Source: Minisyncoccota bacterium (GTDB lineage Bacteria; Patescibacteriota; Minisyncoccia; Phycocordibacterales; SW-6-46-9). From it: 64,000 nt of DNA. Under the pieces are notes generated by a model. The model was not told where the DNA came from and searched no databases. It saw only the letters and a program-made list of their open reading frames with translations. Shown here piece after piece: positions 37,188 to 63,217 of this stretch. The number at the start of each line of letters is the position of its first letter. The first letter of the stretch is position 1. Location of the stretch: positions 226,292 to 290,291 of the forward strand of contig JBBDRP010000002.1 in the NCBI GenBank assembly GCA_040905385.1, read 5' to 3'. Both the position numbers and the translations under genes were made by a program.

Positions 37188-37199
37188 AAATAACTCACC

Positions 37200-37830
37200 G
37201 GGTTGAGTTATTTAGCCAGCGTGAAGGATGGCCAGTATTTATCTATTACAAAAGCCGCCATCTTCTCGATAGCGGCTTTCTCGAACGACTTGAATGAGCA
37301 CCCGATATCTCTTGCTGCTAAGCAGGAAGAGAACGGTTGTGCGAATTTACCCGCACACTCGAAGCTTCGAGTGTTAGCTGGCAAAGCCAGCGCGGGTTTA
37401 TGTCCGGAAATTATATGTAATTTCCCTGGACCAAGTCGGCGGGTAAAGCGAGCGCTTCGACTTGCGGAGTGCTCGCGGCTTCCGAAGTCAAGACTTCTTA
37501 TCTTGTTATTTGATTAGCGAAGTCGAGCGACTCAAGTCGGCGGAATAAGCTTGGTGCCGTGGAGTACACGGTGCCAAGCGGCTTAGGGAGTTTAAGTAGC
37601 AATCTGGCGAACTGTTAATTACTCGAAGGACTCAAGTCCGCACGAGTGCTCGCAAATCACAAAACTTTGTAGATAGCGTAGACATGAAGCGAGCTGAAAA
37701 TCTTCGACACAGTAGTGCGAAGATTTCAGTGAGCCAACACTAAGGATGGAATGGATCATATCGAACTATTGATTAATCCAACGCCTCAAGGCGGTAAAAA
37801 TTGTCGGAAATTACATTCTGTTGTAGACTG
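37200..37830. ncRNA. Candidate large structured non-coding RNA region (~630 bp, ORF-free, dense hairpins). Strand and identity unknown.
   Basis: Only a spurious 104-aa ORF. Contains a perfect 20-nt palindrome ACACTCGAAGCTTCGAGTGT (37355-37374); a 12-bp stem CTTGGTGCCGTG-GAGUA-CACGGTGCCAAG with two G-U wobbles (37550-37578); GTCCGGAAATTA-TATG-TAATTTCCCTGGAC; CTGAAAATCTTCG...CGAAGATTTCAG; and repeated words AAGTCGGCGG, CTCAAGTC, GAGTGCTCGC. Confidence 0.3.
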
Positions 37831-37831
37831 C

Positions 37832-39589
37832 CTATACTCCGATAACCACCGGAATCACAAGCGGTTCCTTGCCCGTCTCCTGTCGGAGGTAGCTGCGGGT
37901 TCGTTCGGTTAGCTTGCTCTTTACGTAGTCAAAGTTAACTGACTTACGGCCTTTAGCAGCCTCCTCGACAACATTGCGAACGAGGTCACGTGTGTCGGAA
38001 AGAAGTTTCTTGCTTTCTCGGAGATAGACAAATCCGCGGCTGATAAGATCCGGAGACTTACGCAGCTTCCCGTTCTTTGGGTTAATGGCCACGATTATTA
38101 CGAAGATACCTTCAGTCTGTAGTATTTCGCGATCACGGATGACAACATCCTGAATGTTACCAATACTGAGTCCATCAACGGTAAGTGTCTCTCCAGCGGC
38201 CTTTTGCGGCAGCTTTTCGAACTTTGTACCGTTCTCTTTAATTTCCACAATGGATCCATTCTCGGGAACAATTACGTGATTATCTGGCATACCAAGATCC
38301 TTGGTAGCTAGCTTCTTGTGCAGCTCGAGCATATAACGGTTTCCGTGCTGTGGCATGAAGAATTTTGGCTTCAGCATTTCGTGCAGCCAACGAATTTCAC
38401 CACGGTTTCCGTGTCCGGAAGCATGAACGTGTAGGTCAGTGGTTTTTGAGGTAATGATATCGGCACCCGAGGCCGCAATGTTGTCCTTTAGTGATGCCAC
38501 TGCTTTTTCGTTTCCAGGTACAACCGACGCAGATAGTACGACAGTGTCCTGCCCGTTAAAGGCTAGATGATGGTGGGTCTGGTTTGCCATACGGTTGAGG
38601 GCGGCAAATTCCTCTCCCTGTGATCCGGTAGCAAGAATCAAAATCTCGTTTGGTTGGTAGTTATCGACATCCTTGCCTTGAATAAATATGCCATCTGGTG
38701 CCTTGATGAGCCCGGCTTCCTGCGCAACAGCAACGTTCGTACGCATGGATCGACCTTCAAGTACGACTTTGCGGTTGTACTGACCAGCCAAATCAATAAT
38801 TCGTGCCATACGTTCGATTAGCGAGGCGAAGGAGGCAATGATCAGTCGTCCGTGCGTCTGCTGGAAGATTTTTTCTAGGTCGCGGTGTACCTTCCATTCC
38901 GGTACTCCGAATCCAGGATTCTCAATGTTAGTGGAGTCCATCATCAGCATCAGAACATCCTTCTCGGCGACTTTTTTGTATACTTGCTGCTCTTTCTCGG
39001 AAACAGTTCCATCCACGTGGTCCAGCTCGAAGTCGGCCTGGTTGATAATCTGTCCGTATGGTGTGTCGATGATGACACCCATAGAGTCAGGAATTGTGTG
39101 TGCCATCTCATAGAATCGTACTGGTGTGCTACCGAGCGTGATTTCATCCTCACCCGTAACGACATGAATATCAAGTGGTTCGTTGTCAGGAAATTCTTCC
39201 TGACGCTTTAAAATCATCAGTTTAGAAAAACTGCGACAGTAAATTGGAGGATTGCCGATACGATCCATAATATAGGGAATACCACCGATGTGGTCGAGGT
39301 GACCGTGAGTGATGACGAGACCGCGAATTTTATCTTTGTGCTCCTCGAGGTAACGAGTATTTGGAAGCACATAATCAATTCCAGGTAGATCTTCACTTTC
39401 AAAGCTGTATCCGCAGTCGATGATAATGATGTCATTGGCTGTCTCTATCATGGCCATGTTGCGTCCGACCTCCTCGACTCCGGACAGCGGAATGATGCGA
39501 ATGTCTCCTTCGGCGACTTCAGGAATTGGATCGCCTTTGCGTTCATCTAATTCTCTGTGTTGTAGATTGGTAGTTGTGTATCGTCCCAT
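37832..39589 (-). CDS. rnj: Ribonuclease J (metallo-beta-lactamase / beta-CASP RNase)
   Basis: ...IIPLSGVEEVGRNMAMIETANDIIIIDCG...LVITHGHLDHIGGIPY... HxHxDH motif and beta-CASP layout, 585 aa. Confidence 0.9.
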   Translation of the reverse strand: MGRYTTTNLQHRELDERKGDPIPEVAEGDIRIIPLSGVEEVGRNMAMIETANDIIIIDCGYSFESEDLPGIDYVLPNTRYLEEHKDKIRGLVITHGHLDHIGGIPYIMDRIGNPPIYCRSFSKLMILKRQEEFPDNEPLDIHVVTGEDEITLGSTPVRFYEMAHTIPDSMGVIIDTPYGQIINQADFELDHVDGTVSEKEQQVYKKVAEKDVLMLMMDSTNIENPGFGVPEWKVHRDLEKIFQQTHGRLIIASFASLIERMARIIDLAGQYNRKVVLEGRSMRTNVAVAQEAGLIKAPDGIFIQGKDVDNYQPNEILILATGSQGEEFAALNRMANQTHHHLAFNGQDTVVLSASVVPGNEKAVASLKDNIAASGADIITSKTTDLHVHASGHGNRGEIRWLHEMLKPKFFMPQHGNRYMLELHKKLATKDLGMPDNHVIVPENGSIVEIKENGTKFEKLPQKAAGETLTVDGLSIGNIQDVVIRDREILQTEGIFVIIVAINPKNGKLRKSPDLISRGFVYLRESKKLLSDTRDLVRNVVEEAAKGRKSVNFDYVKSKLTERTRSYLRQETGKEPLVIPVVIGV

Positions 39590-39768
39590 AATTTATTAGC
39601 TTCGAGCTCTTAGCTTTTAGCTTATAAGTTAGATCTAGACTGTTTTGGTTATCAGCTAGATTTTGAATAATAATGCGAATTGAACAAACTCGCGGGATAC
39701 AGGAACAATGTTTTGATCCCGTATCGGCGGGCTCATTTTTTGGTTTGTACGTTCGTTGACCCCTTTGT

Positions 39769-41481
39769 CTATCGGCTGGCTTTTTCGGCATTGGTCTGGT
39801 CGTCATCCAGAAATATATTCCAGAGTTTTGTGGTACTGGTATGCCAGTCAGTAATGCGGGCAAAGCGGTCGGATGGTGTGGTGATTGGTGGAATGGCGGC
39901 ATTTCTTATGTTGTCGGGAAGTATGTAGATGAAGCTAGGGCTGTAGACAAAGCTGGCGGGTTGGTCGTCTGTGATTGTTTCGGTAATCTCACTCTGCAGG
40001 TTATCGCGAACCACAGTGGAGGTGGCAACGCGCCACTGGGAAAGCGCATCATCAATGCTGGAGTTGGTGTATATTGCAAGATTTAGCCCGGGATCATCCT
40101 GACCACTGGAGTGCCAGAATGGGTAGAGGTCGCCGCTCTGGTTGATAACCTGACCGAAAAGCAGCGCTTCGTAATCTCGTGGACGAATAATACTCTGTGT
40201 TAATTCATTTACTGGCAGCGTAGTGACCGTAACCGAGACACCGATATCCTCCCAGCTTTCAGCGATGCGGTTAGCGGTCTCCTGAAGCGCTGGAATTGCT
40301 GCTGTGGTCAGCTCGATCGATAGCGTTTCGCCATCTTCATTGACCCGTGTATCGCCAGATTCTTCCCACCCAGCCGTTGTTAATGTTTCCCTAGCTGCTC
40401 TGATGGTTGAGGAACTTACTTCCTCAGCTGGACGAATACTTGGTAGCGGTCCGTCAAGTGGTTTACCGTATCCGTACAGAGCCTCCTGGATAATTTCTCT
40501 GCGTGGAATCACGGAATCCAGCGCTCGGCGCAGATCTGCCTCAACCAGCACCTCATTGTTGTTCTGGTTGTAGTAAATGGCGAATACTCGGTTCAGCGAT
40601 TTGCTGACTATCTGTGTGTTATTAGTATTCAGCTCATCTACAGCGTGTGGGTCAGCACCATAAAAGCCATCAATATCTTCAGAACGGAAGGCGTCAGTAA
40701 CTGCGTTGGCATCAGTGAAAAAGGAAAGCGAGACACGTTTTATATACGGGGTACTGTGGTACGTCTCGGCAGCAGTTAGATCGTAACGGTTCGGAATTCC
40801 TTCTTCGTTGCGAATAATGTCAGCTACCTGGTACGGTCCGGCACCAACCGGTCGGACATTAAGGCTCGAGAAAGAGATTGAACTGATGGTTTCATTCTCC
40901 CAAAGATGGGCGGGTAGAATACCGATACGAGCTGTATACGGAAAGCTTGTAAATGGCTGCGAAAGATTGAAGGCGACAGTCTTATCGTCAATTACCTCGA
41001 CACTGATACTGTTCCAGTCGGACTGTTGTGGGCTATTGACCACCGGGTCTTGAATCAGGGAGATGGTGAAGGCAATATCCTCGGCCGTCACCGGCTGCCC
41101 ATCATGAAAGACAGCATCATCACGGATAGTAAAGGTGTAGGTCTCGCCGTTCTCTGAGACCTCCATAGCTTCTGCTAGGTCAAGCGTAATGTCACCGCTG
41201 GTGGTGAGTTTCGTAAGTCCGGCGTGTACTAGTGCTGACAGGTCGCGGTCGGCGTCACTGCGGGCCAGAACTGGATTAATATACTGTGGGAAGCCGACAA
41301 TGCCTTCATGATAGTGACCACCCCGAGTTGGGATAACGGTAGAGGCATTATCTTGTAACTGGTTTAGTAGCCCCATACCACCAAGCGTGACCAGTACAAC
41401 CAGCACTGAAAACACTACCAGCTCGAGTGGAGAGAGATTGTGGTAAGCATGACGAAGTTGGCTGTAAAGGGGTATTTCCAT
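39769..41481 (-). CDS. Membrane-anchored extracellular solute-binding protein, family 5 (peptide/oligosaccharide ABC-type SBP), no adjacent permease genes
   Basis: N-terminal TM helix, then a typical SBP_bac_5 layout (…YINPVLARSDADRDLSALVHAGL…, 570 aa). Confidence 0.75.
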   Translation of the reverse strand: MEIPLYSQLRHAYHNLSPLELVVFSVLVVLVTLGGMGLLNQLQDNASTVIPTRGGHYHEGIVGFPQYINPVLARSDADRDLSALVHAGLTKLTTSGDITLDLAEAMEVSENGETYTFTIRDDAVFHDGQPVTAEDIAFTISLIQDPVVNSPQQSDWNSISVEVIDDKTVAFNLSQPFTSFPYTARIGILPAHLWENETISSISFSSLNVRPVGAGPYQVADIIRNEEGIPNRYDLTAAETYHSTPYIKRVSLSFFTDANAVTDAFRSEDIDGFYGADPHAVDELNTNNTQIVSKSLNRVFAIYYNQNNNEVLVEADLRRALDSVIPRREIIQEALYGYGKPLDGPLPSIRPAEEVSSSTIRAARETLTTAGWEESGDTRVNEDGETLSIELTTAAIPALQETANRIAESWEDIGVSVTVTTLPVNELTQSIIRPRDYEALLFGQVINQSGDLYPFWHSSGQDDPGLNLAIYTNSSIDDALSQWRVATSTVVRDNLQSEITETITDDQPASFVYSPSFIYILPDNIRNAAIPPITTPSDRFARITDWHTSTTKLWNIFLDDDQTNAEKASR

Positions 41482-41520
41482 GTGTATATAAGGAGAGTGG
41501 TTTTCTATGCAGTTTGACTG

Positions 41521-41751
41521 CTAGATAAGAAAGCTAATGAAGGATGCTAAGGCAAAAAGAATCGCGATAACAATCGTGGCTTTGAATAGGGTTTTATCGA
41601 AGCCGCGTCGTGTACGACCACCTCCACCGGAATCTCCACCACCAAATACGGCACCCAGACTAGCGTCTGTTTGTTGCATTAGTATGGCTGTCACAAGAAT
41701 GACAGACAGGAATATTTGGATGTAGGGAAGAATGGAGCTCATAGCGTTCAC
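41521..41751 (-). CDS. secG: Preprotein translocase subunit SecG
   Basis: 76 aa, two TM helices, LMQQ...GLGAVFGGG motif. Confidence 0.75.
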   Translation of the reverse strand: MNAMSSILPYIQIFLSVILVTAILMQQTDASLGAVFGGGDSGGGGRTRRGFDKTLFKATIVIAILFALASFISFLI

Positions 41752-42018
41752 GTAGGTAGTATTGTAGCAGATGTGAATTTATTTACAACAGCGGTCGTTC
41801 GCACTCCTCCTTTGTGTGCGCACGAATAAACCACGCATTACGCGTGGTTTTTCTCTGCTCGTCCCGCTTTAGCGGGACTGTGCAAGGCTTCACAAAGGAG
41901 AGTACTCACTTAGTAGTACATTTCCAATCTTTTGTAATATAAATAGATTCAGGAAGGAGGTGCGCATATTACGTATTTATAAGCCTGCAATTTTAATTGC
42001 AGGCGCTCTTAAAGCGAA

Positions 42019-42147
42019 CCCACTCCTTCTCAGCTACCTCTCGGAGGCTGATTTGCTCGGTTTCTTCTTTTTGAAGAAAAATCAGCCGAGAGTGAGCGCA
42101 ATTTCTCGCTGGAGAAATTGACGCGTGTATGCTGAGAAGGTAGTGGG
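42019..42147. repeat. ~130-nt compound hairpin structure. Outer inverted repeat CCCACTCCTTCTCAGC / GCTGAGAAGGTAGTGGG encloses two stable inner hairpins (CTCTCGGAGGCTGATTT...AAAATCAGCCGAGAG and GCGCAATTTCTC-GCTG-GAGAAATTGACGCG).
   Basis: Read directly. Lies between secG (-) and the groES promoter. No ORF. Confidence 0.6.
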
Positions 42148-42158
42148 TGAGCGCCCAC

Positions 42159-42187
42159 TTGAAACGGAAGAGCGTGGCGCGTATAAT
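42159..42187 (+). promoter_or_regulatory. Sigma70-type promoter TTGAAA-N17-TATAAT for groES-groEL. An inverted repeat CTGCACT-N19-AGTGCAG (42192-42224) in the 5' UTR is a candidate operator.
   Basis: Consensus hexamers at optimal spacing ~100 bp upstream of the groES ATG. The IR is not a canonical CIRCE. Confidence 0.5.
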
Positions 42188-42290
42188 GTGCCTGCACTAA
42201 TGAATTCTGTAGTTGACAGTGCAGCCACTATATCGACCGCGTGTGGTCGGTAATTTATGATTATTAAAGACGTTAAAAATACAAAAAACT

Positions 42291-42617
42291 ATGGCAAAGA
42301 AAAAGAATCCTGTTGGAATTAAACCGCTTGCCGACCGAGTCTTGATACGAGAAGAGACGGCAGACGAAGGAGAGAAAAAGACGGAGTCAGGAATCATCAT
42401 TCCAGATACGGTTGGCGATGACAACGCTCGTGGTGCTAATCGCGGTGAAGTTGTGGCAGTTGGTGACGGAAAGGTTGATGACGATGGAAAGAAGCTCGAG
42501 ATTCCCGTAAAGGCTGGCGACATTGTTATCTTTAGCTGGGGTGAGCAGCTAACGATTGATGAGATTGATTACCACCTTGTTGATCAGAGCAATATTCTTG
42601 CAGTAGTTGAGGGGTAG
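42291..42617 (+). CDS. groES: Co-chaperonin GroES
   Basis: IKPLADRVLIR...ESGIIIPDT...GEVVAVGDGK... Confidence 0.95.
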   Translation: MAKKKNPVGIKPLADRVLIREETADEGEKKTESGIIIPDTVGDDNARGANRGEVVAVGDGKVDDDGKKLEIPVKAGDIVIFSWGEQLTIDEIDYHLVDQSNILAVVEG

Positions 42618-42651
42618 AGGTTTATTATTTCTAATCTAAATCATATTTACT

Positions 42652-44304
42652 ATGTCTAAAAACGTTATCTTTCATGAGGAGGCACGTCAGAAGCTGATGG
42701 CTGGAATCGACAAGGTTGCGAATGCGGTAAAGGTGACGATTGGTCCGCGTGGACGCAATGTTGTACTGGATAAGGGCTACGGAGCGCCGACCATTACTAA
42801 TGATGGAGTTTCCATTGCTAAGGAAATTTCGCTCAAGAACAAGTTCGAAAACATGGGGGCCGAGATTATCAAGGAGGTAGCCGAGAAGACCAACACGGCA
42901 GCTGGTGACGGAACCTCGACAGCCACGATTCTGGCTCACGCCATTATGACCGAGGGGCTGAAGCGAACAACGCTCGGTGCCAATGCAATGGTGATTCGTG
43001 AGGGTATCGAGGAGGCCGCTCGTGACGCGGTAGAGGAGCTAATGAAGACGGCGACCAATGTACGCGGTGACGACATTCAGCGTGTGGCAGCTATCGCTGC
43101 CGAGAGCGAGAAGCTTGGTGAAATCATTGCCGACACGATGGAGAAGGTCGGCAAGGACGGTGTGGTGACGGTAGAGGAGTCACGTACCACCGGACTGTCT
43201 TCGGAGGTGGTTGAGGGACTAGAGTTTGATAAAGGATTTGTGTCACCGTACATGGTGACCGATTCAGAACGTATGGAGGCGGTGTATGAAGACACGGCGG
43301 TGCTGGTAACCGACCAGAAGATCTCAAGTGCTAAGGATATTCTACCACTGCTGGAGAGTCTGGCACAGGGAGGCCAAAAGGAGCTGGTGATTATCGCTGA
43401 TGATATTGAGGGCGAGGCACTAGCGACGTTTGTGGTTAACAAGCTTCGCGGTGGATTTAACGTGCTGGCTATCGAAGCACCTGGGTTTGGTGACGCCAAG
43501 AAGGATCGACTCGAGGATATTGCGACGGTCGTTGGTGCGCAGGTTATCTCAGAAGATCGTGGACACTCGCTGGACAAGGCAACCGAGTCAATGCTCGGAA
43601 AGGCCGGAAAGATTATTGCCTCAGAAGACAAGACAACCATCGTAGGAGGCGCAGGAACCAAGAAGGATATCGAGGCCCGTGCCGAGAAACTTCGCACGCA
43701 GGCCGAGCATGCTGATGCATCTTATGCTCGTGAGAAGCTCGAAAAGCGTGCCGCTGCATTGACCGGTGGAGTGGCGGTAATCCGGGTTGGTGCTGCTACC
43801 GAGACCGAGATGAAGTATCTCAAGCTGAAGATCGAGGATGCGGTGAATGCTACCAAGGCCGCTATTGAAGAAGGGGTCGTTGATGGTGGTGGAGCCGCGT
43901 TGGTAAAGATTGGCAAGAAGCTTCGCGACAAGCTCGAGAAGATGGATGCCAATGATGATCACAAGGTTGGGTACATGATTCTTACCCGCGCGCTGGACGC
44001 ACCGTTCAAGCAGATTGTTCAGAACGCCGGAAATGAAGAGGCGTCGGCCGTGCTGCATGACGTTCGTATCGGCAAAAAAGGATACGATGCCAAGAACAAC
44101 GTGATTGTAGACAACATCTCCTCAGCTGGAATTATTGATCCGGCTAAGGTGGTGCGAACGGGAATCGAGAACGCTGCCTCTGCAGCCGCAATTCTCCTGA
44201 CTACGGAGGCGGCAGTTGCTGAAGACCCAGACGATGATGATGATCAGCAGGGTGGCGGTGGCATGCCGGGTGGAATGGGTGGCGGTATGCCGGGTATGAT
44301 GTAG
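42652..44304 (+). CDS. groEL: Chaperonin GroEL (C-terminal GGM repeat)
   Basis: ...[17 protein letters not shown]...[13 protein letters not shown]... and C-terminal [16 protein letters not shown]. Confidence 0.97.
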
Positions 44305-44366
44305 TAAAAATCTATGGCGGACAGTGATCCGCAGACACTCTTGCGCGCTTGAGCGCTTCGAGAAAG

Positions 44367-44398
44367 CCACCGTCTCTGCGACGGCGGCTTTTGTTATT
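44367..44398 (+). terminator. Probable groEL terminator hairpin
   Basis: AAAGCCACCGTC-TCTGC-GACGGCGGCTTTTGTT. Confidence 0.55.
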
Positions 44399-44399
44399 A

Positions 44400-44680
44400 A
44401 ACTATCTACAACAGATAGTGATGGGAGAACGTAGTTGACGGCTTGAGCCGTTGGATTGATTGGTAGTCGAGCCAGGAAAGCCGCCAGCACTCCGCCAGTC
44501 GGAGCACTGGCTTATAACCGAATGGTTTGGGAAAATAGCCGTCTCCTGGACGGTCATTTTTGTTATCGGATAACCAGTAAGGTTTTACACTGGAAACCAC
44601 AAAATCTGCGGAAGGTCTTACAGAAAGCAGGTACTCGTTCGTATTGCGAAAAGACCGCCGGTTGACGGTCTTTTTTTAAT
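44400..44680 (+). ncRNA. Candidate ORF-free transcript (~270 nt) ending in a strong terminator; possible small RNA or leader
   Basis: No ORF of 60 aa or more on the + strand. Internal hairpin GCCAGCACTCCG-CCAGT-CGGAGCACTGGC with a symmetric 2x2 internal loop. Terminator AGACCG-CCGGTTGA-CGGTCT-TTTTTTT at 44650-44678. Confidence 0.35.
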
Positions 44681-44766
44681 GGAGGGTATTAATTGACATA
44701 AGATATATATAAATGTAAAGTAAAAATAGAAACTAAAATGTTAATTCTTTAGAAACGGAGGCCATC

Positions 44767-45357
44767 ATGGCCAATATCCTAATAGTAGAAGGCGACAGCC
44801 GTCAAGTGAAGTCGGCGATTGATCATCTAGGTGAAAAGAATGAACTTGTCATATTAAACTGTGACTATACTGGTTTTGTTAGTCTTGAACTGTTTGATTT
44901 CATTCTTATTGACTTACTAAAAACCAGACTTCCTGATCCGGATTATTACAGGTTTGGAAGAGAGAGGATGATTTTCAAGGAAGCTTTTAATCTTCTCGAT
45001 AGATTAGTCATACGAGGAATTGCTTTTGTTGGTAATCCTTGTAATCCAGAAGAAAAGTTTAATAAAGATGTTCTTTCACTTTTTGCTAGATCGTACAAGT
45101 TTTGCTTTCCTAATCCTCCTAGATATGAACACTTCCGTGCAATATCTTCTAGGGGAGAAAAGTCTGAGCTGAGAAATTCTCTAGTTATGTTTAATCACAT
45201 GATTGATGAATATAAATACCTATTGACTCCGGAGGGTAATAGACTAAGAACAGCTTCATTATCTTTAGATCAAATAAGTGATCTTTGTTACAACAAAGAT
45301 CATGTTCCAGAAATACCTTGGAAGGAGGTTGTCCACGCTCTTGAACTTCCAAAATAA
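44767..45357 (+). CDS. Hypothetical protein. The N-terminal ~110 aa resemble a degenerate CheY-like receiver fold (MANILIVEGD...FDFILIDLL); the C-terminal domain is unknown.
   Basis: Receiver-like beta1/beta3 motifs by eye only. No output domain recognised. Confidence 0.5.
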   Translation: MANILIVEGDSRQVKSAIDHLGEKNELVILNCDYTGFVSLELFDFILIDLLKTRLPDPDYYRFGRERMIFKEAFNLLDRLVIRGIAFVGNPCNPEEKFNKDVLSLFARSYKFCFPNPPRYEHFRAISSRGEKSELRNSLVMFNHMIDEYKYLLTPEGNRLRTASLSLDQISDLCYNKDHVPEIPWKEVVHALELPK

Positions 45358-45422
45358 TCACAAAATTAAAATTAAAAGCCAACCGAGCTTCTTGGTTGGC
45401 TTTTTAATATGCTACTCTTGAG

Positions 45423-45962: not shown

Positions 45963-45990
45963 ACAGTCATGATACAAGTCACGCATGTAA

Positions 45991-46015
45991 AAGACCGCCA
46001 CTCAGCGGTCTTTTG
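45991..46015 (+). terminator. Rho-independent terminator
   Basis: AGACCGC-CACTCA-GCGGTCT-TTTG. Confidence 0.65.
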
Positions 46016-46071
46016 TTATTCAATTCAGACATACTCCGGATACTTATTGTGAGGATGGTGGAGGTATCCAA

Positions 46072-46347: not shown

Positions 46348-46452
46348 GTATATATACTACTATCCACCAAGGTCAGAAATCACTACATAGGTCTAACCTC
46401 TGTAAATTTCCCAGAGTCTTTCATGTGGGCGTGATATACTATATTCATACTA

Positions 46453-50471: not shown

Positions 50472-50557
50472 GGAGGGATGACAGAGCGGTCGATTGTGCA
50501 CGCTTGGAAAGCGTGTGTGCGTTCTTCGCACCGCGGGTTCGAATCCCGCTCCCTCCG
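50472..50557 (+). tRNA. tRNA-Ser (anticodon GGA), class II with long variable arm
   Basis: Acceptor GGAGGGA/TCCCTCC + G, 3-bp D-stem, anticodon loop TTGGAAA, variable hairpin GTGCG-TTCT-CGCAC, T-arm GCGGG-TTCGAAT-CCCGC. Confidence 0.9.
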
Positions 50558-50577
50558 CTGTGGTTGTATTTTTTCGC
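50541..50577 (+). repeat. Direct repeat copy 1: last 17 nt of tRNA-Ser + 20 nt trailer (GAATCCCGCTCCCTCCGCTGTGGTTGTATTTTTTCGC)
   Basis: Identical sequence (with one extra T) at 50691-50728. Confidence 0.85.
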
Positions 50578-53197: not shown

Positions 53198-53244
53198 CGA
53201 TGACCGGGGAGTGCTTATTTACCACCTAACACACAGTCACTGAT

Positions 53245-54921: not shown

Positions 54922-54949
54922 CGTAAATACCAATCTTTTGCGTGCGCAC

Positions 54950-54975
54950 AAATAAATCCCTGCGAGGATTTTTAT
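54950..54975 (+). terminator. Weak hairpin + T-run after nrdA (AAATCCCTGCGAGGATTTTTA)
   Basis: 5-6 bp stem. Confidence 0.35.
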
Positions 54976-55062
54976 CCGCTCAGGCGCTCAGTTTGATAGA
55001 AATCGGACATCATACTGAGCGCCTTGCGCAAGGCTCCGAAAAAGAGGTATTTACTCAGTTCA

Positions 55063-55093
55063 TCGATTTTATTTTCTTTGAAAATAAAATCGG
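55063..55093. repeat. 13-bp-stem hairpin TCGATTTTATTTTC-TTT-GAAAATAAAATCGG immediately preceding motif-family copy A
   Basis: Read directly. Confidence 0.7.
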
Positions 55094-55396
55094 AAAGGAA
55101 GTCCGAACAAAACAAGGTGCTCGCATTGAAGTTTCTTGCCTAATCTATAGTTATGTTACTCGGCTTCGTCTCTTTAAGTAAAGCTAAGAAGTATCCCTGT
55201 GCTGAAGCTAGAACAGTACATAGATAAGAGGTAATTTTTGCCCAAAAAACGACCCAGAACGGCTATTTATTTTGGTTGAAAAAAGTCGATATTGAATTAT
55301 TCCATCTTATTTTTAGAGATGTTTTTTATAGCCAGCTACTGCGCACTAGTTAAACGATATCTTTTACAAATATGCAATTAAGGTTTTTGTTTAGCA

Positions 55397-55426
55397 TCTA
55401 TCAGTAAAAATAATTTTACTGATAGA
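55397..55426. promoter_or_regulatory. Perfect inverted repeat TCTATCAGTAAAA-ATAA-TTTTACTGATAGA ~65 bp upstream of the class-II-like RNR gene; candidate operator
   Basis: 13-bp arms read directly. Not a canonical NrdR box. Confidence 0.4.
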
Positions 55427-55491
55427 AACATAATATAATACATAAACAATTAAATAATGTTTCGGTTTTAAAATCTAATTATTTATTCTTT

Positions 55492-57819
55492 ATGTCTCAA
55501 TCAGCATCTCAATTAGGGGAGGGTAAAAGAAATGTATCAGTGGATGAAGCTGAAAAAATTATTGGTAAAGTCATGAAGCGTGATGGTGCTATTGTTGATT
55601 TTAATATTGATAATATTGCGAACGCTATTTTCTCTGCAATGAAAGAGACGGAAGAGGGATCTAAATCAGCAGCAGAAAAAGTTGCCAAGCGTGTTTTAAC
55701 AGAGCTCGTTCGTATCAAGGAGCGATACGCTACCTTCGTCCCTTCTGTTGAAGGAATTCAGGACCATGTAGAGAAGGCACTTATGCGAGCTGACTTTCCG
55801 CAGACGGCCAAGGCTTATATTTTATATCGAGAGAAGCGATCGCAAGAGAGAGAGCAAAAAACCTATGTAGTTCCCGAGGAGGTTAAGCAGGCGGTGGCTG
55901 AGTCAAGTCAGTATTTCGGCAGTTCTTATCAGGAGTTTATTTTTTACCGCACCTACTCTCGTTGGCGAGATGATCTCGGTCGGCGGGAAACTTGGACGGA
56001 GGCCATCGATCGGTATATGGATTTCATGCGTGAGAATGTTGGCAACAAAATAACTGAATCTGAGTATAAGGAAGTTCGTCAGGCTATGCTGGATATGGAA
56101 ATTATGCCTTCGATGCGACTACTTTGGTCGTCCGGTAAGGCGGCTCGGGAGTCAAATGTTTGGGCGTACAACTGTTCTTATTTAGCACCAACTCGGTTGC
56201 GAGATTTTCCCGAAATGATGTATATCCTTATGTGTGGAGCTGGTTTAGGCTACTCGGTTGAGACTGAGAATATTGGGCAGTTACCGCAGATAATTAAGCA
56301 AACAGGAGAGCAGCTAGAGACACATGTGGTGGCTGATAATAAAGAGGGTTGGGCTGATGCTTTTCTTCATGGTCTTGAGACGTGGTATGCCGGTAAGGAT
56401 ATTGAGTTTGATTACTCGAAGGTGCGTCCGAAAGGGGCTCGCTTGAAGACGGCTGGTGGTACAGCCAGCGGTCCGCAGCCGCTGAAGAACTTAATGGCTT
56501 TTTCTCGTGAGAAAATTCTTGCTCGACAAGGTAAGCGACTATCAACCATTGATGTGCATGACATAATTTGTAAAATCGGAGAGATTGTAGTATCTGGTGG
56601 AGTGCGACGATCGGCCTTGATTTCGTTGTCAGATCTTGGTGACGAGGATATGCGTGATGCTAAAAAAGGGCGCTTCTTTGACACGGAACCGCAGCGAGCC
56701 ATGGCCAACAACTCAGCAGTTTATGAAGAAAAACCATCACCAGGAACCTTTCTGTCTGAGTGGACAGCGTTGGTGAAAAGTAATTCTGGAGAACGCGGTA
56801 TCTTTAATCGCGGTGGCCTGGAGGAGCAGCTACCCGAGCGCCGTGCAAAAATATTTCGCGAGAAAGAGGAGAATGGAGATATGAGTTTCCGGCCAGGAGT
56901 TAATCCGTGTGGTGAAATTATTCTGCAGAGCCGACAGTTTTGCAATCTTACCAATGTGGTAATACGGAAAGGGGATACCGTGAAAGAGCTGAAGCGGCGT
57001 ATGCGGCTGGCGAGTCTGCTTGGTACGTACCAAGCAACCTTGACAAAGTTCAAGTATCTGTCTGAGGAATGGAAGCAGAACTGTGACCAAGAGCGCTTAC
57101 TTGGCGTTGCCTTTACTGGCTATTATGACAACGAGGCGGTACGCGATGATAAGGTGATGGAGGAGCTTAAAAACGAAGCCGTAGCCGCCAATGATAAGTA
57201 TGCGGAACGTCTTGGTATTAGTAAATCAACCTGTGTGACTACGGTGAAGCCAAGTGGAAACTCATCCCAGCTAACTGACACAGCTTCGGGAATGCATCCA
57301 CGCTACGCTCCGTACTACATTAGACGCGTACGAATCAGCGATACTGATCCTTTGTTTAAATTAATGAAGGAAGAAGGGGTGTCGTACCAGCCTGAGGTTG
57401 GTCAGACTGAGGATACAGCCAATACGTTTGTGCTAGAGTTTCCGCTGAAAGCACCGGAAGGAGCCATCACAACTAAGGATGTTAGTGCCTTAGATCTACT
57501 TAAGGAGTGGCGCCGCGTCAAGGAGCATTACACAGAACATAATCCTTCAATCACGATTTCGGTTGGTGATGATGAGTGGATTGAAGTGGCTAACTTTCTG
57601 TATAAAAATTGGGAGACGGTTGGTGGACTGTCATTTCTGCCACGAACTGACCACGTTTACGACTTAGCTCCGTATGAGCCAATCTCGAAGGAGGAGTACG
57701 AAGAGATGGTTTCCCAGGTGCCGGATGTTGACTTTGCTAAGCTGTCCGCTATCGAGGCGACAGATAATACCGAGGGATCAAAGGAGTTTGCCTGCGTGTC
57801 TGGAGAGTGTCCAATTTAG
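55492..57819 (+). CDS. Ribonucleotide reductase, class II (adenosylcobalamin-dependent, NrdJ-like) with N-terminal ATP-cone
   Basis: N-term VMKRDGAIVDFNIDNIANAIFSA (ATP-cone). NPCGEIILQSRQFCNLTNV active-site motif typical of class II. 775 aa. Confidence 0.65.
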   Translation: MSQSASQLGEGKRNVSVDEAEKIIGKVMKRDGAIVDFNIDNIANAIFSAMKETEEGSKSAAEKVAKRVLTELVRIKERYATFVPSVEGIQDHVEKALMRADFPQTAKAYILYREKRSQEREQKTYVVPEEVKQAVAESSQYFGSSYQEFIFYRTYSRWRDDLGRRETWTEAIDRYMDFMRENVGNKITESEYKEVRQAMLDMEIMPSMRLLWSSGKAARESNVWAYNCSYLAPTRLRDFPEMMYILMCGAGLGYSVETENIGQLPQIIKQTGEQLETHVVADNKEGWADAFLHGLETWYAGKDIEFDYSKVRPKGARLKTAGGTASGPQPLKNLMAFSREKILARQGKRLSTIDVHDIICKIGEIVVSGGVRRSALISLSDLGDEDMRDAKKGRFFDTEPQRAMANNSAVYEEKPSPGTFLSEWTALVKSNSGERGIFNRGGLEEQLPERRAKIFREKEENGDMSFRPGVNPCGEIILQSRQFCNLTNVVIRKGDTVKELKRRMRLASLLGTYQATLTKFKYLSEEWKQNCDQERLLGVAFTGYYDNEAVRDDKVMEELKNEAVAANDKYAERLGISKSTCVTTVKPSGNSSQLTDTASGMHPRYAPYYIRRVRISDTDPLFKLMKEEGVSYQPEVGQTEDTANTFVLEFPLKAPEGAITTKDVSALDLLKEWRRVKEHYTEHNPSITISVGDDEWIEVANFLYKNWETVGGLSFLPRTDHVYDLAPYEPISKEEYEEMVSQVPDVDFAKLSAIEATDNTEGSKEFACVSGECPI

Positions 57820-57834
57820 AATAAAAAGGTTGGT

Positions 57835-58161
57835 TTGATTTATACACAATCAAATGTTATAATTATCATTGGTGATTGCGTAGTCGCCCCCCACCACTTT
57901 GTGCATTACGTTTACGTTTTAAAAAGTCAGAAGGATAAAAAGCTCTACATTGGAGTGACGGAAGATCTTAAACGACGTTTTGCTGAGCATCAAAATGGAG
58001 AAAATCGCTCAACGAAACATCGTCGTCCGTTTACACTTGTTTACTACGAAGCATTTAGAGCCAAAGTAGATGCTCATGAAAGAGAGCGGAAGCTAAAACA
58101 GTTTAAGAATTCGTATAAACATCTAAAGGATCGTATTGGTAAATGTATTGATAGTGCATAA
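57835..58161 (+). CDS. GIY-YIG nuclease superfamily protein (YhbQ/UPF0213-like); alternative GTG start near 57900
   Basis: VHYVYVLKSQKDKKLYIGVTEDLKRRFAEHQNG...RRPFTLVYYEAF GIY-YIG core. Confidence 0.75.
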   Translation: MIYTQSNVIIIIGDCVVAPHHFVHYVYVLKSQKDKKLYIGVTEDLKRRFAEHQNGENRSTKHRRPFTLVYYEAFRAKVDAHERERKLKQFKNSYKHLKDRIGKCIDSA

Positions 58162-58495
58162 AGTGGTGGGGGGAGGAAAGTCCGAACACACCCTGATTTT
58201 TTAATCTGGAGCACGTAGCGGGTAACTCCCGTCAGTCGTAAGACTGTGGTGCGAACAGTGACGCTGAAATTTGAAAGGGTTTCAGCATCCCCCACTTTTA
58301 AAGGTAGCGGATGAACTTGGTGGCAACACTAAGGTGAAACGGCTAAATCTGTACGTGTGTGCAAGGCCGTATTCCAGCCTCCGGGCTGGTCTGAGCCGCT
58401 TGAGTACAGTGGTAACACTGTACCTAGACAAATGACTACAACGGAACTTATGTAACGTAGGTTTCTAAACAGAATTCGGCTTACGGATCACCAAA
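58162..58495 (+). ncRNA. rnpB: RNase P RNA (bacterial type). The 5' boundary is uncertain and may overlap the end of the GIY-YIG ORF.
   Basis: P4 5' strand GGAGGAAAGUCCGAAC (58172-58187) and 3' strand ACAGAAUUCGGCUUACGG (58469-58486), with a compensatory CCGAA/UUCGG change relative to the E. coli CCGGG/CCCGG. Spacing ~290 nt as in E. coli. Short P1 UGGUG/CACCA. Confidence 0.6.
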
Positions 58496-58503
58496 ATATA
58501 CGA

Positions 58504-58532
58504 AAAAGCCACCCTGACGGTGGCTTTTTCTT
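58504..58532 (+). terminator. Rho-independent terminator after rnpB
   Basis: AAGCCACC-CTGA-CGGTGGCTT-TTTC. Confidence 0.7.
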
Positions 58533-58595
58533 TTAGCTTGACGCTGAGGTTATTCGTATATTTTTTCTTTCAGCACGCTATAATAGGAAGGCATT

Positions 58596-60278
58596 ATGTT
58601 TAAGCGCATTCTCTTTTTTCTGAGTAAAAAAATCACTGGTTTACACCAGGCTGCGTATATTATTGGGTTCTTTACGCTGCTTAGCCAGGTCTTGGGCTTG
58701 GTGCGTGATCGTCTGCTTGCTTATAACTTCGGCGCCGATACAACGGTGGATATCTACTACGCGGCTTTCCGTATTCCGGACATTATTCTGGTTGTGGCAG
58801 GATCCGTTGTTTCCATATCAGTCTTGGTTCCATTTCTTACCAAGAAGATATCTCAGAGCAAAGAGGTTGCAGAAGAGTTCATTGATACAGTCTTCACGAT
58901 ATTCTTTATTGGAGTTATTACGATCTGTATCCCGCTTTACTTCCTGATGCCGAACCTGATTCCGGTTGTCTTTCCCGGAATTACGGACGCAGTAGCCCAG
59001 GCTAATCTGATCTTTTTGGCTCGGCTATTCCTCCTATCGCCAATCCTGCTGGGGCTGTCTAACATCTTTGCGTCCATTATTCAGGTACACCGGCGATTTC
59101 TTATCTACGCGATTTCACCGCTTCTCTATAATTTAGGTATTATTATTGGTATTGTGGCGCTCTACCCGTATTTCGGGATTACAGGGCTTGGACTTGGAGT
59201 TGTTCTCGGAGTGCTGATGCATGTTGGAATTCAGCTGCCGTTTATTATCAAGAAGGGGTTCGTTCCACGCTGGTTTTTTCCTGCTGACCGTAGCGAGATC
59301 TGGAAGGTGGTGCGCAACTCTTTGCCGCGAACCTTCACGCTTTCGATTGATAAACTGGCCCTACTATTTCTCGTTAGCTTGGCATCGCTTATTGGTTCGG
59401 GTTCAATTGCGATCTTTAACTATGCCTGGAACCTACAGTCGGTGCCAATGGCGCTGGTTGGGGCCAGCTATTCATTGGCGGCTTTTCCGGTGTTGTCGCA
59501 GTTGTTTGCTGATGGTGATATGAAGGGATTTATGCGCCAGGTGCAGACAGCCATCCGGCATGTTGTCTTCTGGTCGCTACCGATCCTGTCACTTTTTATT
59601 GTTCTGCGGGCGCAGATAGTTCGTACCATTCTTGGGGCTGGAGAGTTCGGCTGGCTGGCGACACGATTGACAGCGGCATCGCTGTCGCTTTTCGTGATTT
59701 CGGTAGTGGCACAAAGCCTGGTGCTGGTACTGGTTCGAGCCTACTATGCAGCTGATGATACAATGACGCCGCTGATAACCAGTGTGATTGGCGGTACGAC
59801 GATTCTGGGTGGTGCCTACGGTCTAATGGCGGCCTTTCAGAATATTCCGGTATTTCGATTCTTTCTCGAGAATTTGCTGCGCGTACGCGGGATAGAAGGT
59901 ACTGGTGTATTGGTGCTGCCGCTGGCGTACTCACTGGGAATGGTAGTAATGGTAGCCATCCTGTGGTACTTTTTTCAGGACAAGTTTGGTCTCTTTCCAG
60001 CTGATATGTATCGCTCGCTCTGGCAGTCAGCTGGTTCAGCCATAGTTGGTGGCTTCGTTGCCTACGGTGGTCTGCTGCTGTTTGGAAATTGGCTTGCGCT
60101 TACAACCGGGCTCGGTATCTTCCTACAGGGATTTTTGGCTGGTATTACCGGCATCGCAGCGATGATTTTGACTTTGTGGCTGATGGATAATCAAGAACTT
60201 GAGGAGATGTGGCAGGCTGTGCGTGAACGTTACTGGCATGTATCCGTAGAAGCCATCGGTCCAGCCGAACAACAATAA
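58596..60278 (+). CDS. murJ: Lipid II flippase MurJ (MviN)
   Basis: ...LSQVLGLVRDRLLAYNFGADTTVDIYYAAFRIPDI..., 12-14 TM helices, 560 aa. Confidence 0.85.
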   Translation: MFKRILFFLSKKITGLHQAAYIIGFFTLLSQVLGLVRDRLLAYNFGADTTVDIYYAAFRIPDIILVVAGSVVSISVLVPFLTKKISQSKEVAEEFIDTVFTIFFIGVITICIPLYFLMPNLIPVVFPGITDAVAQANLIFLARLFLLSPILLGLSNIFASIIQVHRRFLIYAISPLLYNLGIIIGIVALYPYFGITGLGLGVVLGVLMHVGIQLPFIIKKGFVPRWFFPADRSEIWKVVRNSLPRTFTLSIDKLALLFLVSLASLIGSGSIAIFNYAWNLQSVPMALVGASYSLAAFPVLSQLFADGDMKGFMRQVQTAIRHVVFWSLPILSLFIVLRAQIVRTILGAGEFGWLATRLTAASLSLFVISVVAQSLVLVLVRAYYAADDTMTPLITSVIGGTTILGGAYGLMAAFQNIPVFRFFLENLLRVRGIEGTGVLVLPLAYSLGMVVMVAILWYFFQDKFGLFPADMYRSLWQSAGSAIVGGFVAYGGLLLFGNWLALTTGLGIFLQGFLAGITGIAAMILTLWLMDNQELEEMWQAVRERYWHVSVEAIGPAEQQ

Positions 60279-60366
60279 ATTATGAATAATATCCGAAATT
60301 TCATCATAATAGCCTGTCCCACTTCGCGCAGAGCGCTTCGCGGGGCAGGTATAGACCATTTTTATC

Positions 60367-62151
60367 ATGGATAATATTAGAAATTTCAGCATAATTGCAC
60401 ATATCGACCACGGTAAGAGCACCCTGGCGGATCGGATGCTGGAGGTGACTGGAACGATTTCTGATCGTGATATGCAGGAGCAGGTGCTGGACCAGATGGA
60501 TCTCGAGCGAGAGCGTGGTATTACCATCAAGATGACACCGGTGACAATGAAGTATGAAGCCAATGGCGCGGCGTATGAGCTGAATCTTATCGATACCCCT
60601 GGTCACGTTGATTTTTCCTACGAAGTCTCACGAGCCATGCGAGCAGTTGAAGGTGCCGTTCTGTTGGTGGATTCGACGCAGGGTATCGAGGCGCAGACAT
60701 TGGCCGTGTTGTCGATTGCTCAGGAGCAGCAGTTGACGATTGTACCAGCGGTAACCAAGATTGATGCCAAGAATGCTCGACCGGAAGAGGTGGCGCTAGA
60801 GCTGGCGGAGCTGCTTTCGGTAGAAATGGATGATATTGCTCGTGTTTCTGGCAAGACCGGTGAGGGAGTCGATGATCTACTGCGCCGTGTGATCCGGAAC
60901 GTGCCGGCTCCGACCCAGCGAGATACAAAAACTTCACAAGGATTAGTTTTTGATTTTGATTACTCATCGCACCGCGGCATTGTGGCGTATACACGTATTT
61001 TCTCTGGTGAGTTCTCTAAAAATAACAAGTTGAAGCTAGTGGCGGCAGACCGTACCTTTATCCCGGCAGAGGTTGGTGTCTTCTCACCGACAGCGGTGCC
61101 CCAGAGGGAGCTCAATGCGGGATCGGTCGGGTACGTGGTAACAGGTATCAAGGAGCCCGGAGTCGTATCTATTGGTGACACAATCACAACGGCTGATGCC
61201 AGTATCGAGCCGTTGGCTGGGTATGATCCGCCACAGCCGGTGGTGTGGGCCAGCGTTTTTCCGGAAAATCAGGATCAGTTCACCTCACTCGAGCAGGCAC
61301 TGGAGCGCCTGCTTTTGACTGATTCATCCCTACAGTACGAACGCGAAAAAAGTGCCGGTCTGGGTCAGGGATTTCGCTGTGGTTTTTTAGGGCGATTGCA
61401 TATGGAGGTTGCTATTGAGCGACTTCGCCGTGACTATAATCTGGATCTTATTACGACTAGCCCGTCGGTAGCCTTTCGGGTGACCACGAATAATGGGGAG
61501 ACCGAGACAATCCGTACGCCGTCACGCTTTCCGCATTATGGCGAGATAAAGGAGATTCAGGAGCCCTGGGTATCGGTTACCATTCGTACGCCCAACGACT
61601 ACATGAGCGACATTATGAGCATTGTGTACGAGCATGAAGGAGAGGTGGTTGATACGCAGTCGGGGCAGTCGGATCGTTTGACGGTGGTGGCCGAGATGCC
61701 GCTACGTGAGCTAATGCGTGGATTTTTTACGGCGCTGAAGCAGTCATCATCGGGATTTGCTTCGCTTTCTTACGAGGTCGTGGCGTACCAGCCAGCCGAG
61801 GTGACGCGTCTGGAGGTCCTGGTGGCCGGCGAGCGGGTACCAGCACTGGCCACTATTGTTTCCAAGCAGCGGGTGGATCGTCAGGCCCGGGAAATCGTTG
61901 AGAAGCTCAAAGACTTACTACCACAGCAGGTAGTATCAGTCCGAATCCAGGCTGAGTCTCAGGGGCGCATAATTGCCTCCGAGACGTTACGAGCGAGTCG
62001 TAAGGATGTAACGGCCGGATTGTACGGTGGTGACTTCTCGCGCAAGAAAAAGAAGCTGAAGGCGCAGCGAGAAGGCAAGAAGAAACTTCAGGATCGCGTT
62101 AGCGTCCGAATTCCGTCCGAGGTGTATATAAAGATGATGCGGGATGACTAG
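60367..62151 (+). CDS. lepA: Translation elongation factor 4 (LepA)
   Basis: IRNFSIIAHIDHGKSTLADRML...DTPGHVDF..., C-terminal LepA-specific domain. Confidence 0.95.
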   Translation: MDNIRNFSIIAHIDHGKSTLADRMLEVTGTISDRDMQEQVLDQMDLERERGITIKMTPVTMKYEANGAAYELNLIDTPGHVDFSYEVSRAMRAVEGAVLLVDSTQGIEAQTLAVLSIAQEQQLTIVPAVTKIDAKNARPEEVALELAELLSVEMDDIARVSGKTGEGVDDLLRRVIRNVPAPTQRDTKTSQGLVFDFDYSSHRGIVAYTRIFSGEFSKNNKLKLVAADRTFIPAEVGVFSPTAVPQRELNAGSVGYVVTGIKEPGVVSIGDTITTADASIEPLAGYDPPQPVVWASVFPENQDQFTSLEQALERLLLTDSSLQYEREKSAGLGQGFRCGFLGRLHMEVAIERLRRDYNLDLITTSPSVAFRVTTNNGETETIRTPSRFPHYGEIKEIQEPWVSVTIRTPNDYMSDIMSIVYEHEGEVVDTQSGQSDRLTVVAEMPLRELMRGFFTALKQSSSGFASLSYEVVAYQPAEVTRLEVLVAGERVPALATIVSKQRVDRQAREIVEKLKDLLPQQVVSVRIQAESQGRIIASETLRASRKDVTAGLYGGDFSRKKKKLKAQREGKKKLQDRVSVRIPSEVYIKMMRDD

Positions 62152-62301
62152 CTCGTTACGCCGGCGATGGGGGTATATAGCAAGATCATTCCCAGAATTA
62201 GTACCACTGTCACTACGATGGTAATAATTCTCAGCATTTTTCTGTTTTCCTTTCCAAACATATATAATGTATAAAGCTAATAAATTCGTAACTTCAGTAT
62301 A

Positions 62302-62679
62302 ATGCCTCGACGCACTACAAACAAATTACAACGGGTGATTTATTCGATTCCTTTTTTGATTTTTCTAACGGTAATGGTGGTTTTGGTAGTTATGGCGGCC
62401 TGGAATATGTATCAGACCAGCTACGGAACCGAGCAACGTCTAGAGCGTCTGCGAGCCGAACACCAGGAACTTCAGCAGCGAGAGGAGATTGTCTCTAATG
62501 ATGCGTTGAACGTATCCACCGAGCGTGGATTGGAGGCTGAGATTCGCGAGAAGTTTTCAGTAGCTGCGGAGGGGGAGCGGGTGATTGTACTGGTTGATGA
62601 TAAGGATCAGCCGGCGACCACGACCGAACCAGAAGCTTCATGGTGGCAGAGGACACTTTCCTCTATCTGGCCATTTTAG
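62302..62679 (+). CDS. Septum formation initiator family protein (FtsB/DivIC-like)
   Basis: N-terminal TM helix followed by coiled coil LERLRAEHQELQQREEIV. Confidence 0.55.
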   Translation: MPRRTTNKLQRVIYSIPFLIFLTVMVVLVVMAAWNMYQTSYGTEQRLERLRAEHQELQQREEIVSNDALNVSTERGLEAEIREKFSVAAEGERVIVLVDDKDQPATTTEPEASWWQRTLSSIWPF

Positions 62680-62769
62680 AGACGGTCTAAATATGCTATA
62701 ATCCTGTTAATTATTCATCATTAACCGCGGAGTGGAGAAATACCCGGACACACTTCGTTTAATATTTAT

Positions 62770-63015
62770 ATGAAAAAAGTTACCATTTACTCTACACCGA
62801 CATGCCAGTACTGCGAGGCGGCAAAAGAATACATGAAGGAGCACGAGATTGATTACAAAGATTACGATGTATCTTCCGACACCGACCGACGCAAGGAGAT
62901 GATTGAGAAGTCAGGACAGATGGGCGTTCCGGTTATCGTCATTGGTGAGGAGATGATGGTTGGATTTGAGCAGGACAAGTTTGAGGAGTTACTGGCGTCA
63001 CAAAGCGAAGAATAA
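62770..63015 (+). CDS. Glutaredoxin-like protein (NrdH/YruB-like thioredoxin fold)
   Basis: VTIYSTPTCQYCEAAKEYM...GVPVIVIG CxxC motif. Confidence 0.8.
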   Translation: MKKVTIYSTPTCQYCEAAKEYMKEHEIDYKDYDVSSDTDRRKEMIEKSGQMGVPVIVIGEEMMVGFEQDKFEELLASQSEE

Positions 63016-63043
63016 CTCGTACCCCTGTTTTGCTTCGGCACGA

Positions 63044-63070
63044 AAAGACGCCCAGCGGGCGTCTTTTCTC
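63044..63070 (+). terminator. Rho-independent terminator
   Basis: AAGACGCC-CAGC-GGGCGTCTT-TTCT. Confidence 0.7.
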
Positions 63071-63217
63071 ATATCTCAGCCTCGCTCCTCCGACACATGT
63101 CGGAGACCATGCTCGCTTGGCTTACGAAGTCCGAACAAAACAGAGTACTCGCTTTATAGTTTCCTACACAAACTACGAATGCGTATAGACTTTTGAAGGG
63201 ACGTGCTGTATTTATTG

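Follow-up and report, generated by a model that had tools for sequence, protein, structure and literature searches.

The sequence analysed here, referred to as the window, is a stretch of 64,000 nucleotides (nt) from a Minisyncoccota bacterium (contig JBBDRP010000002.1, positions 226,292 to 290,291). Its right-hand part carries RNase J and a major facilitator superfamily (MFS) gene, the divergent secG/groES pair, groEL, the alpha gene of a ribonucleotide reductase (RNR), the RNA of RNase P and a glutaredoxin gene (grx) that converges on tRNA-Arg. Several spacers of this region harbour a palindromic repeat of about 125-155 nt without an open reading frame (ORF), and we establish here how it is built, that compensatory change conserves this anatomy, and that the repeat is dispersed and turns over between strains. 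The initial annotation of the window had described a self-contained motif of 40-55 nt in three intergenic copies, here called A, B and C. Our analysis reveals that this motif is the 3' strand of the closing helix (P1) of the repeat plus the conserved terminus GTRCTCGC.

The 64-kb window was compared with the syntenic contigs of its relatives L002-L010 and L034-L037, and with L016. RNR alpha of the relatives is 94, 92, 86 and 85% identical to that of the window, while RNase J of L037, the most distant relative, shares 75% identity. Two covariance models were used, R1 from seven close copies and R2 from 11 copies, the latter run on the whole window with filters off. Counts of pairing, strand and position refer to 11 distinct repeat copies found by covariance model; this sample is small, its copies are related to each other, and their alignment was fitted to the model itself, which favours the structure.

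Architecture and covariation of the repeat

Directly past the RNR alpha stop codon of L002-L005, the homology to the region of copy C covers about 160 nt and is not limited to the motif. The unit starts with CTCGYACCYCTGTTTTGYTTCGGCAC, an inverted repeat of the motif (21-nt arms, 86% complementary, 99 nt apart), and RNAalifold on seven copies predicted a three-way junction. In the closing helix P1 the 5' arm is joined to the 3' arm over about 20 bp, and the arms pair in every copy. An A-run precedes P2, a G+C-rich hairpin, and TTTTCTCAT follows it; a two-part extended hairpin, P3/P4, completes the junction. All copies are bracketed at both ends by the pentamer YTCRY, which is usually CTCGC.

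P1 occurs in at least five unrelated sequence versions (CTGTTTTGYTTCGG, GTTCTCCAGAAGAG, CCTTCTCAGC, CTCCTTTGTG and ATACCAATCTTTT). A set of unpaired words is kept despite this change of arms, namely the P2 loop CCAGCG, CTCATRTCTC, ACCATGC and CCGAAG. The initial annotation had proposed structural covariation as a check, and the result is strong: 37 of 42 pairs have changed on both sides across the 11 copies. Standard pairing is found in 91.2% of the cells, compared with 72.4% after shuffling and 40-50% when the partners are slid by 1-3 columns, and none of 500 shuffles reaches any of these measures. An independent MAFFT/RNAalifold alignment gives 19 compensated pairs out of 42. Covariation is present in all five helices, and every copy folds better than its shuffles, with z-scores of the minimum free energy (MFE) between -2.6 and -10. 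A pseudoknot between the P2 loop and the linker ACCATGCCCGCTC was considered and rejected; the two are complementary in L002, but by eye this is not kept in L008a.

Copies of the repeat in the window

The covariance models detect three full copies in the window in addition to element C, none of which was in the seed; they are named E1, E2 and E3 (Table 1). Their arms are unrelated in sequence but the pairing is kept. The earlier picture of three short copies therefore changes: copies B and C are indeed homologous (84% identity over 38 nt, both aligning to the same element in relatives), but the unit is about 125-155 nt long, and the window holds four full copies plus arm remnants. Three of the four full copies carry no recognisable motif. 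E1 scores 27.6 bits (E 2.9e-7) and E2 36.1 bits (E 4.7e-10) with R1, both being outside its seed; the fold of E2 has an MFE of -68.9 kcal/mol (z -10). E3 scores 39.2 bits with R2 (E 2e-9) and 22.6 bits with R1, and matches its orthologous L002 element column for column in the alignment. The right flank of element C is 82% identical over 67 nt to that of the RNR-alpha element in L006/L007. The remnant behind groEL is orthologous to the 3' end of L002 17-168 (local alignment to L002 126-209), an element that itself scores 144.7 bits with the covariance model.

Table 1. Coordinates of the repeat copies, their parts and RNase P RNA in the window
Feature	Position	Strand	Remarks
Element C	63014-63162	+	R1 165.8 bits, E 2.5e-52
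Element C, 5' arm	63016-63041	+	begins directly past glutaredoxin stop codon
Element C, P2 (terminator-like hairpin)	63042-63068	+	followed by TCATATCTC
Element C, hairpin P3	63088-63105	+	
Element C, linker ACCATGC...TTAC	63106-63125	+	
Element C, 3' arm (copy C)	63126-63152	+	pairs with 5' arm
Element C, right flank	63153-63217	+	travels with the element; reaches tRNA-Arg gene (63217-63290, minus)
E1, complete but shortened	41796-41920	+	secG/groES divergent spacer; arms CTCCTCCTTTGTG / CACAAAGGAGAG
E2, complete	42004-42153	minus	tail-to-tail with E1; arms CCTTCTCAGC / GCTGAGAAGG
E3, diverged complete element	54922-55064	+	directly past RNR alpha stop codon; arms ATACCAATCTTTT / AAAAAGAGGTATT
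groEL remnant	44606-44692	+	behind groEL; degenerate 3' arm (44606-44641) and canonical terminator (44649-44677)
Copy A	37634-37653 (string to 37669)	+	possible 3'-arm remnant, CCGCAC-GA-GTGCTCGC, AAAACA segment deleted
Copy B	55098-55155	+	orphan 3' arm (55098-55124) and right flank; 35 nt after E3
RNase P RNA	58135-58499	+	RF00010, 68.2 bits, E 2e-19, full length; outside the repeat family

All three strings of the original motif are present on the + strand. Copy C lies at 63126-63164 as reported, but A starts 1 nt earlier than annotated, at 37634, and B spans 55098-55135 rather than 55100-55150. Their similarity exceeds chance, as the pattern AAGTCCG-N{4,20}-GTRCTCGC matches three times in the window and not once in 100 dinucleotide shuffles. 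The 10-mer AAGTCCGMAC has four exact occurrences in the window, the fourth being the P4 strand of RNase P RNA. A and B had both been said to follow a hairpin directly; this holds for B (a perfect 13-bp stem at 55064-55092) but not for A, where the nearest strong hairpin ends about 60 nt upstream. The word GGAAAGGAAGTCCGAAC, previously ascribed to copy A, is actually in copy B. Copy B is 80-82% identical over 50 nt to L002-L005 11788-11837, and no matching partner 5' arm was found for it. A shared RNA fold of 130 nt around A, B and C was rejected; there is no common structure and the z-scores are weak, because the partner arm lies upstream. The motif was also rejected as a sigma-70 promoter, with no qualifying -35/-10 at any copy.

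Copy A has in common with the family only two 10-nt blocks on either side of a 6-nt gap, and the covariance model gives it 0.8 bits. Since a chance match to these two end blocks is expected only about 0.004 times in such a window by a rough estimate, we read copy A, with low confidence, as a deleted arm remnant. It sits within a strain-specific insertion of 530-700 nt. The RNase J-MFS spacer (37000-37832) is 830 nt long in the window as compared with 120-165 nt in L034, L036 and L037. Hairpins crowd the additional DNA, which also has words of the form (C)TCAAGTC(G/C)GC about 100 nt apart, at 37432, 37532 and 37632; no Rfam match was found in it. Region A was also considered as an array of full elements and rejected, all that appeared being two minus-strand mini-hairpins with family-like termini and scores of 12-13 bits (37284-37347 and 37679-37739).

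Resemblance to RNase P RNA

The initial annotation placed the RNase P word correctly at 58172-58187; it is inside a genuine RNase P RNA, with the P4 word AAGTCCGAAC at 58178-58187. At 68 bits this gene stays below the gathering score that Rfam sets at 100, and a GIY-YIG ORF overlaps its 5' end. Rfam also identifies three tRNAs in the window. The likeness to the repeat consists of an 11-nt identity, AAGTCCGAACA, between the P4 strand and copies B and C, together with UUCGGC, which resembles the partner strand. The repeat has no other feature of RNase P, and the word is not conserved within the family: at the P4-like place other members carry GAAGCCCGAAC, GAAGCCTGAAC or wholly different arms. 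RF00010 gives no match at 37634, 55098 or 63126 even at E<=10. The suggested functional link to RNase P is therefore not borne out, and the resemblance is an 11-nt coincidence. An RNase P pseudogene was likewise rejected, as the Rfam model matches 58135-58499 alone.

Two RNA genes of the region differ in strand between strains. The RNase P gene is inverted in L008 (11949-12314, minus, 109 bits) and L010 (about 6720-7020, minus) relative to the window and L002. tRNA-Ser(GGA), at 50472-50558 on the + strand of the window, is on the minus strand in L002 (7774-7859), L006 (3929-4014) and L008 (7766-7851), where the genes are otherwise collinear; this switch is a small inversion of the RNA gene.

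Genomic position and the P2 hairpin

Eight of the 11 copies begin 0-12 nt past a co-oriented stop codon, belonging to RNR alpha (four strains), glutaredoxin (two), groEL or, in L016, rpoD. Three of these eight (element C, L008c and L008b) stand between convergent units, namely grx/tRNA-Arg for two of them and RNR alpha/inverted RNase P in L008 for the third. The exceptions to the stop-codon rule are E1, E2 and L008 1698-1851, all in the secG/groES divergent spacer. E1 and E2 each begin where a good sigma-70 promoter, firing away from the element, has its upstream edge. They lie between divergent promoters and are entered by no known transcript. No sigma-70-like site was found preceding the repeat copies.

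P2 has in most copies the form GAAAAGRCGCCC-AGC-GGGCGTCTTTTC followed by TCAT. Flanked by the A-run and the T-run, it resembles a bidirectional intrinsic terminator in sequence, although the T-run is missing in L008a and E2. In L002, the elements at 17-168 and 11676-11825 have a separate canonical terminator within 15-50 nt downstream.

Turnover between strains

Comparison of orthologous spacers reveals that the repeat comes and goes between strains. In the grx-tRNA-Arg spacer the element is present in the window and in L008, while in L002, L003 and L006 element C is missing and an ordinary terminator stands there. The secG/groES spacer has 0, 1 or 2 copies depending on the strain; E1 occupies the position of L008 1698-1851 and is absent in L034, L036 and L037. 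Over about 92 kb of L034, L036, L037 and L010 we found 0 copies, compared with four in the right-hand 28 kb of the window.

Element C shares 86% identity over 160 nt with the RNR-alpha copy of L002, which is not at the orthologous site; in the comparison that puts this figure at 87%, its orthologous copy in L008 reaches only 73%. As its right flank also matches that of the RNR-alpha copy in L006, element C has the appearance of a unit copied recently from elsewhere. At the RNR-alpha site itself, L002 and L006 have kept the flanks (33/40 and 27/35 identical), while the interior between the CTCGC words is at chance level (69/127).

The neighbourhood of the RNR-alpha element also varies in gene content. 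In the window, a class II (B12-type) RNR with an ATP-cone and a GIY-YIG ORF (57835-58161, Pfam 7e-17) are located between RNR alpha and RNase P (55492-58161), and L010 has a class II RNR at the same place (4329-6653). L002-L005, L008 and L009 have no gene there, and L006 has two unrelated small ORFs (8107-8786). By its gene content, the place just downstream of the RNR-alpha element thus looks like an insertion hotspot. Next to the RNR operon, some relatives have genes for a large serine recombinase (L006 1331-3862) and an HNH endonuclease (L003 6793-7707), both of which are absent there in the window.

Distribution of the repeat family

Rfam gave no match over any repeat copy in the window, L002, L006, L008 or L016, and ARAGORN together with Rfam found no tRNA, tmRNA or known RNA at the repeat copies. 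Public sequences were scanned with the strict pattern CATGY-N11-15-GAAGYYYGAAYRAAACAG. Among genomes there were seven matches, one of them real (L016, a Paceibacterota genome in GTDB). Metagenomes gave 16 matches, the real ones all from strains already in the comparison set, and viral contigs gave none. The scans thus recover this clade alone, and either the family has a narrow range or its arms vary too much to be caught by a pattern. The carriers of the repeat form a narrow clade of Candidatus Paceibacterota, within the candidate phyla radiation (CPR), and we did not find such a repeat described in the literature on CPR or Parcubacteria.

Origin and possible role of the repeat

The reading that we prefer, and to which we give about even chances, is that of a lineage-specific palindromic intergenic repeat of the ERIC, Correia, REP or miniature inverted-repeat transposable element (MITE) kind, which is copied or exchanged between spacers and retained behind genes through termination at P2. 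Both the mechanism of spread and the terminator activity of P2 are inferred. The repeat would be a DNA unit that is copied or exchanged between intergenic sites, either through an enzyme that recognises the fold and not the arm sequence or through recombination at the conserved termini. It may then persist because P2, placed behind a stop codon, would terminate transcription of the upstream gene and, between convergent genes, that of the opposing gene as well. Where transcription reads through, exonucleases could be stopped by the folded junction. Copies B and A and the arm at 44606-44641 would be decayed remnants of such units.

The initial annotation had left three options open, and a REP-type element is the closest of them: the repeat is dispersed, palindromic, intergenic and present or absent by strain, but it forms a 150-nt three-way junction and has no GTAG head, whereas REP is a single hairpin of 20-40 nt with that head. 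REP/BIME (with RAYT) and BOX/RUP are comparable as dispersed structured intergenic repeats with covarying stems, often at gene 3' ends, that affect mRNA stability or termination. BOX is modular (A-B-C) and has no homology to the present repeat, and no RAYT gene or Y1 transposase was seen in the window and the loci examined. ERIC/IRU of Enterobacteria and Correia/CREE of Neisseria are also non-coding imperfect palindromes of about 100-150 bp, dispersed between genes, gene-adjacent and strain-variable; they are often co-transcribed and can supply terminators or long hairpins sensitive to RNase III. However, they share no sequence similarity with the present repeat, and their copies resemble one another in sequence and have terminal repeats that are fixed (for Correia, also a TA duplication), whereas here the pairing and short words are what is kept, in a three-way junction placed right at stop codons. 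MITEs resemble the repeat in small size, terminal inverted arms, short flanking direct repeats, strain-variable copy number and decayed remnants. They differ in that here no cognate transposase or parent insertion sequence is seen, the arms are not conserved and the flanking pentamer is identical everywhere. The repeat is thus a new family of a known type of element, in bacteria for which such repeats had not been described.

Several observations weigh against a mobile repeat that is kept as a terminator. A clean empty site with preserved flanks was not found at grx or at secG/groES, where the spacers differ over their whole length. Neither the window nor about 400 kb of loci revealed a transposase or recombinase. 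The arm sequences differ between copies, unlike a terminal inverted repeat bound by a transposase, and the constant flanking pentamer may be part of the element and not a target duplication. A simple consensus scan for terminators over 62950-63400 did not call P2, because its A-run pairs with the T-run. If P2 does terminate efficiently, the 3' arm would remain untranscribed and P1 would be without a role in RNA. Finally, the conserved unpaired words and the covariation in every helix would fit a functional RNA as well.

Such an RNA is the alternative that we take most seriously, though we hold it only tentatively. It would be a structured cis-acting element in the 3' untranslated region, on the + strand, co-transcribed with the upstream gene and forming its junction in read-through transcripts; it could act through its unpaired words, for example in protein binding or in mRNA decay by RNase J/Y, or through RNase III cutting the 20-bp P1. 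The covariation in all five helices and the survival of the unpaired words through complete changes of arm argue for it, as do the consistent orientation and the stop-codon adjacency in 8/11 copies; the canonical terminators 15-50 nt past two L002 copies suggest that transcription crosses the element. However, the wobble pairs show no strand bias and point in the wrong direction for a + strand RNA: the + strand has 16 G.U cells against 29 A.C cells, the latter being G.U on the minus strand. The MFE is lower on the minus strand in 11/11 copies, with mixed z-scores, and one of the stem SNPs (single-nucleotide differences) between L002 and L003 gives G.U on the + strand, the other on the minus strand. 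There is no clear strand signature of an RNA, which fits a palindrome at the DNA level or a recent origin, in a sample that is small and made of related copies. The inverted position of E2 and the location of both E1 and E2 between divergent promoters also speak against the RNA, as do the dispensability of the element at each site in close relatives and the lack of an Rfam match. A more far-reaching proposal, which we regard as unlikely, is that the shape itself is recognised: the unit would be either an RNA module on the 3' ends of core mRNAs (RNR, GroEL, RpoD, glutaredoxin) governing decay or termination, or an attC-like single-stranded-DNA recombination site without an integron, through which units, and with them neighbouring genes like the class II RNR, could be exchanged at CTCGC sites immediately past stop codons. 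The attC-like site taken by itself, recognised by its fold and short termini, with units swapped at CTCGC sites behind genes, appears improbable. It shares with integron attC the place directly behind ORFs in their orientation and the variable arms with a fixed fold and short terminal words; the exact replacement of the interior between CTCGC repeats in L002 versus L006 and the strain-specific insertions just downstream (class II RNR and GIY-YIG in the window, two ORFs in L006) would also be expected from it. But the termini read CTCGCAC...GTGCTCGC and there are no RYYYAAC/GTTRRRY core sites, neither an integrase nor a cassette array is seen, the genes in front (RNR, grx, groEL, rpoD) are syntenic core genes and not cassettes, and the inserted genes are themselves without a following element. 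Least credible to us is the original proposal of a self-contained 40-55-nt unit, be it a small-RNA gene, a shared protein-binding site or a motif linked to RNase P. AAGTCCGAACA is common to B, C and RNase P, and the inner P1 (UUCGGC / AAGUCCGAA) resembles both P4 strands. Against this, the motif is only one arm, which pairs and covaries with a 5' arm lying about 100 nt upstream; in other members the place of the motif is taken by different words, and RF00010 matches the true gene alone. A family of small-RNA genes fares no better, as most copies start 0-12 nt past a stop codon and leave no room for a promoter, no promoter-like site stands ahead of the motif, and two copies lie between divergent promoters.

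Other features of the window

On either side of the start region of the MFS gene, 37010-37050 and 37095-37130 form an inverted repeat with AAGTC/GACTT words every 8-9 nt (agtcgaaagtctaaagtcaaaagtcg ... cgacatttgacttttagc), which could be an operator-like array. About 70 nt before the start codon of the class II RNR stands a near-perfect palindrome of 30 nt (ATCTATCAGTAAAAATAATTTTACTGATAG, 55397-55426), possibly the target of a regulator. The terminators at 44360-44400 (+) and 37240-37290 (minus) share the frame GAGAAAGCC-N-GGCGGCTTTTGT(T/A)AT, and the reverse strand of 44478-44513 is matched at 86% identity by the segment 37446-37481; both observations suggest further small repeat families in the spacers of this strain. 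The left part of the window (1-33000) carries very large ORFs built from coding repeats of 1-2 kb, in families of up to 12 copies with 60-85% identity, and the corresponding products of the relatives exceed 1,700-3,000 amino acids.

Significance

CPR genomes are very small (about 0.8 Mb here) and their non-coding DNA is almost unstudied. The repeat occupies several of the few long spacers of such a genome and marks genome change at the level of strains, adjoining both gene insertions and inversions of RNA genes. It also illustrates a way in which terminators may be gained, and to RNA biologists it offers a well-covarying three-way junction. The repeat, of moderate interest as it stands, would gain in interest should its fold turn out to be what is recognised, in an RNA or in a recombination system.

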